From: Escherichia phage vB_EcoM_RZ
Direction: 5' to 3' (one strand)
DNA: 64,000 nucleotides
Sequence record: MW598459
How positions within the stretch are numbered: position 1 is the first letter of the stretch; every line of letters begins with the position of its first letter. Below, piece after piece: positions 8,953-62,268 of the stretch. The notes below the pieces were generated by a model. The model made no database searches. It saw nothing but the letters and a program-made list of their open reading frames with translations, and was not told the origin of the DNA. The position numbers were made by a program, and so were the translations under genes.

Positions 8953-11259
<2,307 letters not shown>

Positions 11260-42304: not shown

Positions 42305-42334
42305 CATTATGCACTGGACCAACCCTGTTGTAAA
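42305..42334 (-). promoter_or_regulatory. early-type promoter (GTTTACA-N17-CATAAT)
   Basis: reverse complement: GGTTTACAacagggttggtccagtgCATAATg. Confidence 0.55.
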
Positions 42335-42354: not shown

Positions 42355-42380
42355 AAGGGACTCCGAAGAGTCCCTGAACT
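42355..42380 (-). terminator. intrinsic terminator (minus strand)
   Basis: GGGACTC-CGAA-GAGTCCC hairpin followed on minus by TTTTTTATTTT. Confidence 0.7.
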
Positions 42381-42543
42381 TATGCTTTCGGCTTACCAAA
42401 GCAAGCTGCATCGGCGCGCAATACCGCACGAGCACGAGCCTGAAGTTTATCAGTCACCTGATTGATTCGCTTGTTGGACGCACGCTTGTAACCAGCGCGT
42501 TTGGAGGAGCCATCAACAACTTTAACTTCTTTCTTAGCCATAT
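42381..42543 (-). CDS. small basic protein (54 aa)
   Basis: ORF below ORF-track cutoff; SD AAGAGAA; K/R-rich MAKKEVKVVDGSSKRAGYKRASNKR...; terminator downstream. Confidence 0.4.
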
Positions 42544-42589
42544 TAAATTCTCTTTAAAATAGAATGCAGGACTTATTGGCATTGCCTGC

Positions 42590-42939
42590 GCAAGCCCTCG
42601 AAGGGAACATTAGGTTTCGGATATTTAACGACAGGATAACCATAAACCTCGTCATCATACCTTATAGCTCTTATCTGTTGCACACCGTTAGCTTAAAGGT
42701 TCCGGGTTCGATTTCTCGAGGATAAGATATATACTGATGGATATATAGGCCTTGAGGCGTACTCCCGATTGGCCATCACCTCGGGGTAGCATGCACTTGC
42801 CGCTATAAGAATAACATTCAAGAGGTACACCGTAAAACTGCCGGGGTCTTAAAACTATAATGATTCGCAAATCATTAATCAGACGGTTCGACGGCTCCTC
42901 GATTTTCTAGCCGCACTAAGGTAGCGAATCACCTACAGC
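42590..42939. other. ORF-free, hairpin-rich intergenic island (candidate structured RNA or regulatory region)
   Basis: 350 bp with stops in all frames, several local inverted repeats (e.g. TAATGATTCGCAAATCATTA, CCCTCGAAGGG). Confidence 0.4.
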
Positions 42940-43194
42940 TTACTTCAGGGTTACGACAAAATGGCGAACAGCTTTACGGGCAGCAGATGCCAGCGGCTTA
43001 GCAAATTTCAGTTCATCTTTTGCTTCGAGCACTGCGCGAAGGTCGGTTTGAACCGGGTTAAGATGTTTGAAATACTGCAGAATTTCCAGTGCTTCGGCTT
43101 CAACATCAATAGATGCGCCGTAGTTTTCGTGACCGTTATTCCATGCAGTGCGTTGCAGTTCGAGAGCGTGTTGTAATTGTTTGTTTAAAGACAT
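42940..43194 (-). CDS. rIII: rIII lysis inhibition accessory protein
   Basis: MSLNKQLQHALELQRTAWNNGHENYGASIDVEAEALEILQYFKHLNP...KPLASAARKAVRHFVVTLK near-identical to remembered T4 rIII. Confidence 0.9.
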   Translation of the reverse strand: MSLNKQLQHALELQRTAWNNGHENYGASIDVEAEALEILQYFKHLNPVQTDLRAVLEAKDELKFAKPLASAARKAVRHFVVTLK

Positions 43195-43348
43195 TTTAGA
43201 AGCCTCAATATGAAGTGAATATTTGGTGGACACGTTCTTCTGAATTTCACTTCCTTTCGGCAAGTCTCTCAGTTGTAGTCCACCGTTTAGGATTGGCTAA
43301 CCCCATACACCAGCAAAGCTCTGTATGACATCAACCAATCCATATTAT

Positions 43349-43356
43349 TATTTATA
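43349..43356 (-). promoter_or_regulatory. late promoter (TATAAATA on minus) upstream of rIII
   Basis: plus-strand TATTTATA between gene 31 and rIII. Confidence 0.45.
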
Positions 43357-43365
43357 ACGCTAATT

Positions 43366-61629: not shown

Positions 61630-62268
61630 TTAATTATACTTCAAAGTGATTGAAGCGATAAACTTTTGAAATTCAGAATCAAGATGGGGATTCCATCCTA
61701 ATTTGAATTTATTTATAATGGAAATACCGGTCGTGTGTGTACACGGTAAACCAGTTTCTCTTGCCATAATAACTGGACCAAGTCTGGAAGTTCTATGCGG
61801 TCCTATATACCAGTCATAATATATTCCAGCATTTAACCAAACTAAATGAGCACCTTTAGCTATTGTATTAGGATGTTCCCAAGGCAATAAACCTTTAAGG
61901 TGAGAATTTAATTTCATATTTATTTTATGTGATTCTGATTTTGGTTTACCTTTTAATGAAGACTTAAAGGTTCCACGAGCACTCGCCTTATTGAAAAACA
62001 ATGGCGATTTAACCACATTATAGTGTTGATGGTAAAACTCTTCTTCTGACAACACATCGTCACACACATGCAGAATTTTAACGGTTGGTTTTTCAGACAA
62101 TGCCTCAATAAAACGAGATTGTTTGCATGAAGACCAGTATTCTTTATTATGTGAATCAATTATAACACCATTTTCAAAAGCACAATTATGCTTTGACCCA
62201 ATGTAAAAATAAGGAGGCGTTTTATTTTTCAGACGAGTTTCAAATGTAAACCAATATACAACATTCAA
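61630..62268 (-). CDS. GIY-YIG-like free-standing endonuclease candidate (SegG-like position)
   Basis: 212 aa; N-terminal VVYWFTF-x14-YFYIGSK resembles GIY...YIG; located between genes 59 and 32. Confidence 0.45.
   Translation of the reverse strand: MNVVYWFTFETRLKNKTPPYFYIGSKHNCAFENGVIIDSHNKEYWSSCKQSRFIEALSEKPTVKILHVCDDVLSEEEFYHQHYNVVKSPLFFNKASARGTFKSSLKGKPKSESHKINMKLNSHLKGLLPWEHPNTIAKGAHLVWLNAGIYYDWYIGPHRTSRLGPVIMARETGLPCTHTTGISIINKFKLGWNPHLDSEFQKFIASITLKYN

Follow-up and report, generated by a model that had tools for sequence, protein, structure and literature searches.

What kind of sequence fills the gap between rIII and 30.9 in Escherichia phage vB_EcoM_RZ, and does it work as a spacer, as DNA or as RNA? 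The window analysed here is a stretch of 64,000 nt from this T4-like phage, which shares 99.7% identity with Escherichia phage pEC-M719-6WT.2 across the rIII-30.9 region. Its minus strand carries gene 31, rIII and a homologue of gp30.9 in that order. The gap between the last two measures 398 bp (42542-42939, from the 30.9 start codon to the rIII stop codon), and no other true non-coding gap in the window is as large. It is framed by two genes and, further downstream, by two transcription signals:

42940-43197, minus strand: rIII, the lysis-inhibition accessory protein (phrog_1457, E = 2e-42; annotated in related records); upstream gene, same transcription unit

42380-42541, minus strand: homologue of gp30.9, a basic protein of 53 aa (phrog_1427, E = 3e-26); downstream gene

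42356-42375, minus strand: intrinsic terminator from a consensus scan, 3' of 30.9

42306-42334, minus strand: early-type promoter TTTACA-17-CATAAT from the consensus scan, past the 30.9 terminator

Pfam returned no match for gp30.9 and no informative domain for either protein, and the order rIII-30.9 is maintained in 37 of 42 loci. The predicted terminator and early-type promoter after 30.9 would mark the end of a rIII-30.9 transcription unit. No promoter-like or terminator-like site was found by the consensus scan within 42542-42939.

A preliminary description of this DNA had singled out positions 42590-42939 as an ORF-free, hairpin-rich island that might encode a structured non-coding RNA. 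The lack of coding capacity is clear, as each of the six frames contains 5-10 stops, the longest open stretch is 72 codons and no credible ORF is present; the 60-aa minus-strand ORF already discounted there lies in a frame that is not conserved in homologues. The remark that the region is not AT-rich filler agrees with a GC content of 0.45 in the gap vs 0.41 in the whole window. The gap was also presented as an exception among abutting ORFs, and while it is indeed the largest real one, the gap between gene 31 and rIII (43198-43365, 171 nt) is real too, and is the sole other ORF-free gap of at least 150 nt in the window. An apparent ORF-free gap of 347 nt at 61918-62264, seen when only ATG starts are allowed, belongs to a segG-like gene with a TTG start; this homing endonuclease ORF (61630-62268, minus strand) lies in a stretch matched by only 9 phage records.

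The pairings on which the hairpin-rich label rested all exist in the sequence. The TAATGATT/AATCATTA hairpin lies at 42858-42865/42870-42877 (one base away from where it had been placed), CCCT-CGA-AGGG at 42595-42605, CCCGA/TCGGG at 42764-42768/42781-42785, and the long-range TGATTCGC/GCGAATCA pairing at 42861-42868/42924-42931. The label itself did not survive comparison with shuffled sequence, for the minimum free energy of the whole gap is -104 kcal/mol vs -103 ± 6 for the shuffles (z = -0.15). Nor is the long-range pairing conserved in relatives: only 5 bp of it are found in T4, as read by eye from an alignment, and it is missing from the RNAalifold consensus. A TACCTTA/TAAGGTA pairing was likewise dropped because it is not conserved among relatives.

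The view that T4 has no comparable spacer proved mistaken, as a homologous 244-bp spacer lies between 30.9 and rIII in T4 (NC_000866, 130541-130784). Alignment with T4 and other relatives resolves the gap into this T4-type spacer and, inserted in it, some 150 nt here called element E. Read along the minus strand from rIII, the modules of the gap are Z, W, E, X, H1 and H2, and last comes a hairpin over the 30.9 Shine-Dalgarno sequence:

42907-42933, minus strand: module Z, GGUGAUUCGCUACCUUAGUGCGGCUAG, a small hairpin CGCU-ACCUU-AGUG directly past the rIII stop codon (by eye)

42822-42900, minus strand: module W, a long irregular hairpin with outer stem GAGG/CCUC (RNAalifold); also in T4

42661-42809, minus strand: element E, a 149-nt four-way-junction RNA (covariation, covariance-model matches)

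42802-42809 with 42661-42668, minus strand: P0, the closing helix of E, 8 bp (pairing in sequence)

42611-42658, minus strand: module X, hairpin GACG-AGG / CCU-GU-CGUU, then conserved GUUAAAUAUCCGAAACC (covariation by eye)

42595-42605, minus strand: hairpin H1, CCCU-UCG-AGGG, then conserved CUUGCG (by eye)

42566-42589, minus strand: hairpin H2, GCAGG...CCUGC (from sequence, by eye)

42547-42565, minus strand: hairpin AUUCU/AGAAU, which holds the 30.9 Shine-Dalgarno sequence AAAGAG at 42550-42555 (sequence, by eye)

Relative to T4, element E is an insertion of 149 nt bounded by an 8-bp inverted repeat, CTTATAGC/GCTATAAG, at 42661-42668 and 42802-42809. In the structural model E is a four-way junction with zero linker nucleotides, in which P0 would stack on P1 and P4. 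P1 is a helix of 3 bp that is invariant apart from one compensatory change in locus L062 (GGU/ACC for GGC/GCC), and the P1-P2 arm contains a conserved internal loop with AAGUGCAU opposite CUCAA. P2 is the CCCGA/TCGGG pairing of the preliminary description and the only one of its hairpins that falls within E. P3 is a 7-bp hairpin with a conserved CAU in its loop, and P4 leads to a three-way junction that carries P5, capped by GAAA in the window copy and usually by GAAA or GUAA across copies, and P6, with an invariant loop of 15 nt. The motif GCUAACGGUGUGCAACAGAU is nearly invariant across genera. Near-invariance is seen in a 25-nt unpaired or junction stretch. The 3' strand of P0 and the sequence beyond it are unconserved.

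Folding energy is uninformative as evidence for this structure, being unexceptional both for E alone (z = -1.4) and for the gap (z = -0.15). The case is carried by comparison of homologues. RNAalifold on ten MAFFT-aligned copies of E gave 39 pairs, 12 of them compensated, and when the hand-drawn helices P0 and P2-P6 were scored on 20 MAFFT-aligned copies, 95.4% of cells were paired, with compensatory changes in 23 of 44 pairs. With divergent copies added, 96.1% of cells were paired and 35 of 47 pairs showed compensatory changes; this last alignment leans towards structure because it was fitted to a covariance model, a bias from which the MAFFT counts (12/39, 23/44) are free. As a control, moving the 3' partners by 1-3 columns left 28-44% of cells paired, and none of 500 shuffles matched the observed pairing values. 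The helices of E contain 46 G·U pairs vs 2 A·C, which means that the minus-strand transcript, and not its complement, is the strand on which the pairing works.

A covariance model built from E (R1) recovered the divergent copies L028, L062, JC221 and GAP161, and its matches to E scored 82-196 bits at 40+ loci. Identity of E to the window copy is 80-95% where the rIII and 30.9 coding sequences reach only 56-76%. No open frame is common to the homologues, each frame having at least one stop in every one of them, and E was rejected as a small protein gene for want of a conserved frame. These comparisons show E to be an RNA domain of the coding strand that is under strong selection and folds autonomously. 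The covariation check in T4-like genomes that the preliminary description had proposed was thus strongly positive for E, and its core idea of a structured non-coding RNA holds, mostly on grounds that it did not see.

The comparative data bear directly on the simplest alternative, namely that the gap is a spacer or the decayed remnant of a gene, with hairpins arising by chance. A folding energy no better than that of shuffled sequence would be expected of such a region, and several public records annotate short hypothetical proteins across it. E is nevertheless more conserved than the genes on either side, covaries strongly and has no frame that is open across homologues, so that this reading, also named in the preliminary description as one that could undo its own, is already contradicted by the comparative sequence data and must be considered extremely improbable.

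The annotations in question include short 'hypothetical protein' CDSs drawn over E on either strand, such as L002 1915-2058 (kpv477_220) and L009 1560-1736 (JC221_170), with others elsewhere; one public record labels the E region '1,4-alpha-glucan branching enzyme'. The CDSs annotated over E are probably a mis-annotated non-coding RNA element.

How widely E occurs was addressed with BLAST, which found it in 406 phage records, in a single copy each. Between rIII and 30.9 it is present in some members of Tequatrovirus and in Gaprivervirus, Dhakavirus, Moonvirus, Jiaodavirus, Karamvirus, Kanagawavirus, Marfavirus, Muldoonvirus and Roskildevirus. The hosts of the phages that carry it are Escherichia, Shigella, Klebsiella, Enterobacter, Citrobacter, Yersinia, Serratia, Edwardsiella, Erwinia and Cronobacter. 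In metagenomes, an exact-pattern scan followed by the covariance model yielded 14 further copies, all of the T4-like type. Among 185,000 bacterial and archaeal genomes there were 60 pattern matches, all of which failed the covariance model, and E. coli genomes gave no match to E. An origin of E in the host, or mimicry of a host element, was rejected on these two results.

T4 itself has an empty site, and phages with 97-99% flank identity lack E. In VR25, IME281 and UGJNEcP2 an unrelated insert of ~52 nt sits at exactly the point of E, in flanks that are otherwise 97-99% identical. The VR25 insert lies at ~1100-1160 of L006 (IME281 is L007 and UGJNEcP2 is L008), and part of the insert resembles module X (GGTTATCTGTC). 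Because T4 and close relatives of vB_EcoM_RZ do without it, E is dispensable for phage viability, and any function of E is therefore accessory or conditional.

Such comings and goings also invite the idea that E works as DNA, being either a cassette for recombination or mobility or a site recognised by a protein, with an RNA fold that is a by-product of inverted repeats. The element does have 8-bp terminal inverted repeats, its presence differs between near-identical phages, other inserts use the same site, and it is found at two different loci. An excess of 46 G·U over 2 A·C pairs is, however, unexpected for DNA cruciforms or double-stranded sites, and compensatory changes preserve the internal helices as well as the termini. 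Furthermore, there is one copy per genome, no transposase or homing endonuclease gene adjoins it, and the insertion boundaries are imprecise, the P0 helix of JS98 being built in part from module X. Action at the DNA level is consequently a very unlikely explanation.

The second of these loci is found in Pseudotevenvirus (GAP161, JC221 and the IMG/VR contigs L246 and L250), where E lies away from rIII, 5 nt 3' of a small ORF that itself comes after uvsY and uvsY.-2. Beyond E there are only non-coding modules (H1-like and X-like) and a strong terminator common to the convergent uvsW.1, and no ORF lies downstream of E at this locus in GAP161 and JC221. E is thus gained and lost as a cassette, and it is found in two unrelated contexts.

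The Pseudotevenvirus arrangement matters for what E could be doing. One explanation is that E is a cis-acting leader of 30.9 (a riboswitch aptamer or an operator bound by a protein), in which binding would alter the hairpins X, H1, H2 and that over the Shine-Dalgarno sequence and so control translation of 30.9 or read-through of the transcript. The location of E on the coding strand, 5' of 30.9, in ~400 genomes is what such a leader would show, as is a junction closed by one helix with invariant nucleotides, which is typical of aptamers. The 30.9 Shine-Dalgarno sequence lies within a hairpin, and gp30.9 is small and very basic, which makes RNA binding by it plausible. Nevertheless, E and the 30.9 start codon are separated by anything from ~45 to 185 nt, with intervening modules that vary by genus, and the unconserved 3' strand of P0 and downstream sequence leave no common expression platform visible. 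T4 and many other phages retain the whole downstream leader without E, no Rfam riboswitch matches E at E ≤ 10, and in Pseudotevenvirus the element has no ORF at all after it. A context without a downstream ORF weakens the riboregulator reading, as far as gene arrangement can tell, and because the RB43-like locus has none, a self-contained RNA cassette is favoured over a 30.9-specific leader. We regard a dedicated 30.9 leader as rather unlikely.

Further elements are found in Pseudotevenvirus and Slopekvirus, in the convergent gap from uvsY.-2 to uvsW.1. Cassette F is conserved there, non-coding and 80-86% identical, with 33 pairs, 9 of them compensated, by RNAalifold on four sequences. Its copies and that of a second cassette, G, are:

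L236 1201-1355: cassette F in RB43

L261 601-743: cassette F in KP15

L262 601-757: cassette F in D6b

L009 1297-1449: cassette F in JC221

L009 1664-1792: cassette G in JC221, common to RB16 and Lw1

In JC221 the elements G, E, Z and F stand in a row within ~800 nt of non-coding sequence. From the arrangement of these genomes, the uvsY-uvsW locus looks like a hot-spot of exchangeable structured-RNA cassettes.

The rIII-30.9 gaps of different genera are similarly mosaics of the same small modules in permuted order. Module Z, whose sequence is also given as GGUGAUUCGCUACCUUAGUGCG, adjoins E in Klebsiella phages and in L062, and lies on the other side of E in JC221. The tip of W is the 8-bp TAATGATT-CGCA-AATCATTA stem-loop at 42858-42877. 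Covariation in W is weak (28 pairs, 4 compensated, in an RNAalifold consensus of 6 sequences), and it is only on the minus strand that G·U pairing accommodates the changes in its apical stem. Module X is present in nearly all rIII-30.9 gaps as a hairpin followed by GUUAAAUAUCC across genera, with different stems such as GUGG/CCAC in Klebsiella phages and GUGGA/UCCAC in L057. It was rejected as a sigma-70, MotA-dependent or late promoter on account of poor hexamer matches by eye. X and Z each occur once in the window, and a search of the rest of it for repeats of X, Z and the 5' motif of E gave chance-level matches only, one of which, at 9992, sits within a 610-aa ORF.

H1 is kept from T4 to Klebsiella, Edwardsiella and Erwinia phages, with GCC/GGC in Cronus and a similar hairpin in Pseudotevenvirus. 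An additional module with a UGUACG loop is found in other genera and is missing from the vB_EcoM_RZ window. Hairpins of different sequence cover the Shine-Dalgarno sequence elsewhere, CCUC/GAGG in Cronus and UCUCC/GGAAGA in Klebsiella phages (by eye). Equivalent Shine-Dalgarno hairpins across genera suggest a conserved translational masking of 30.9, and a consensus fold of the 30.9 leader across genera returned no pairs from a very gappy alignment.

The modules reach beyond the T4-type phages. In Escherichia phage A5-4 (Vequintavirinae) W and X are 87% conserved, just 5' of two tRNA genes, and T4-type spacer modules are therefore common to two phage families. One of the two tRNA genes is unannotated (L005 1397-1475, minus strand) and lies ~25 nt 3' of the W-X copy and just 5' of tRNA-Met, so that in A5-4 the modules run into a tRNA cluster; with the Rfam tRNA model it reaches 35.8 bits, above the gathering threshold of 29, and it is missed by ARAGORN.

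Whether E belongs to a catalogued class of RNA was addressed by database and structural comparison. The preliminary description had fitted neither a tRNA cloverleaf nor any known family by eye, and the programs agree: ARAGORN found no tRNA or tmRNA gene in the window, and Rfam 15 at gathering thresholds matched nothing anywhere in it. At E ≤ 10, the copies of E from the window, L062 and JC221 gave nothing but a chance miRNA match in L009 (JC221). Like a tRNA, E has a four-armed junction with a terminal helix of 7-8 bp, and its P3 loop has CAU; it differs in arm lengths, zero linker nucleotides and the lack of T-loop and D-loop signatures. E was rejected as a tRNA, there being no ARAGORN gene and no Rfam tRNA match at E ≤ 10 with a model that does detect the L005 tRNA.

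A nearer comparison is with rnaC and rnaD of T4, the species 1 and 2 small stable RNAs, which are T-even-phage non-coding RNAs of 119-139 nt. They and the T4 tRNAs are trimmed out of longer precursors, and we know of no function for rnaC or rnaD. Both are encoded within the tRNA cluster, and the end of rnaC is a tRNA-like T-arm, whereas E has no T-arm. R1 run unfiltered on the T4 tRNA/rnaC/rnaD region gave 8 bits at best (E = 0.3), and homology with rnaC or rnaD was rejected.

E resembles riboswitch aptamers and leader RNAs in its junction closed by one helix, its invariant nucleotides and its position on the coding strand 5' of a gene. The covarying helices and invariant junction nucleotides of an aptamer are seen in E, as architecture only. 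An expression platform is not: the downstream sequence and spacing are unconserved and GAP161 and JC221 have no downstream ORF. E thus departs from these classes in having no Rfam match, no visible conserved platform, variable spacing and a context with no downstream ORF.

The PeSL elements of T4-type phages, reportedly mobile regulatory cassettes made of an early promoter and a stem-loop, offer another parallel. They are short non-coding cassettes shuffled among T4-type genomes, and in the gaps that contain E the module order is permuted too. Unlike them, E, with its 149 nt, lacks a promoter consensus and preserves its pairing at the RNA level. A PeSL-type promoter cassette was rejected as there is no early-promoter consensus in 42542-42939, the only one of the region lying at 42306-42334, and a promoter or terminator belonging to E itself was rejected because the scan shows no consensus site. 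TATAAT-like strings just 5' of E in Cronus and GAP161 were judged incidental because they overlap the covarying 5' strand of P0.

The hairpin ribozyme and some twister-sister ribozymes are built around a four-way junction that has no linkers and carries an internal loop in one of its arms. E shares with them a fully paired four-way junction and a conserved internal loop in one arm, and it has a three-way sub-junction that is missing in them. This architecture is one reason to consider E as an RNA-processing element, that is, a self-cleaving ribozyme or an RNase substrate or barrier that would split the rIII/30.9 message or guard the 3' end of rIII. Its start at 0-22 nt past the upstream stop codon in several lineages and its very high nucleotide conservation fit as well. 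Against this, E matches no ribozyme covariance model of Rfam 15 even at E ≤ 10, and invariant loops would be superfluous in a simple exonuclease barrier. A role in processing seems to us unlikely.

No description of E was found in the searchable literature on rIII/30.9, T4-like structured RNAs and phage sRNAs, and an earlier one, in older T4 work, is possible. E appears to be uncatalogued, that is, outside Rfam 15 and the searchable literature.

The reading that we prefer is assembled as follows. The gap would be transcribed on the minus strand within the rIII-30.9 message. We infer that E shares a transcript with the gene upstream of it, since the two are separated by no promoter or terminator consensus and E often starts 0-22 nt past the stop codon, as it does after rIII in Merlin, Cronus, PS49 and EnA02. 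E would then act as a folded RNA in its own right, whether it stays a domain of the mRNA or is trimmed out of the message to give a stable RNA, in the manner of the T4 tRNAs and rnaC/rnaD. Its invariant unpaired nucleotides may recognise one particular partner (a protein, a second RNA or a small ligand), and the element may spread among T4-type phages as an exchangeable non-coding cassette. That E is a self-contained partner-binding RNA of this kind, and not a dedicated regulator of 30.9, has in our estimate about an even chance of being correct; the partner binding, the processing to a stable RNA and any action in trans are guesses. The reasons for not tying E to 30.9 are the ORF-less context, a spacing and module order that vary, the presence of the full 30.9 leader where E is missing, and the invariant unpaired nucleotides. 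The position 5' of 30.9 in >400 genomes counts against an autonomous RNA, as it also fits a cis-acting leader.

More tentatively, and with odds that we judge to be against it, E may represent a new class of functional RNA that binds a ligand or protein and is possibly catalytic, and that plugs in as a cassette at non-coding hot-spots of Enterobacterales T4-type phages beside W, F and G. Acting in trans, such an RNA could have a conserved target in the host or the phage and serve, for example, as a decoy or sponge in takeover or counter-defence. If true, this would explain why E hardly varies although phages can do without it in the laboratory.

Few viruses have been studied as thoroughly as the T4-like phages, and yet E is apparently uncatalogued; one likely reason is that T4 itself lacks it. 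The element is present in ~400 sequenced phages, several of which are phage-therapy candidates, and the near-identical pairs of phages with and without E provide a ready-made test of its function. More broadly, some intergenic regions of T4-type phages are mosaics of exchangeable structured-RNA modules.
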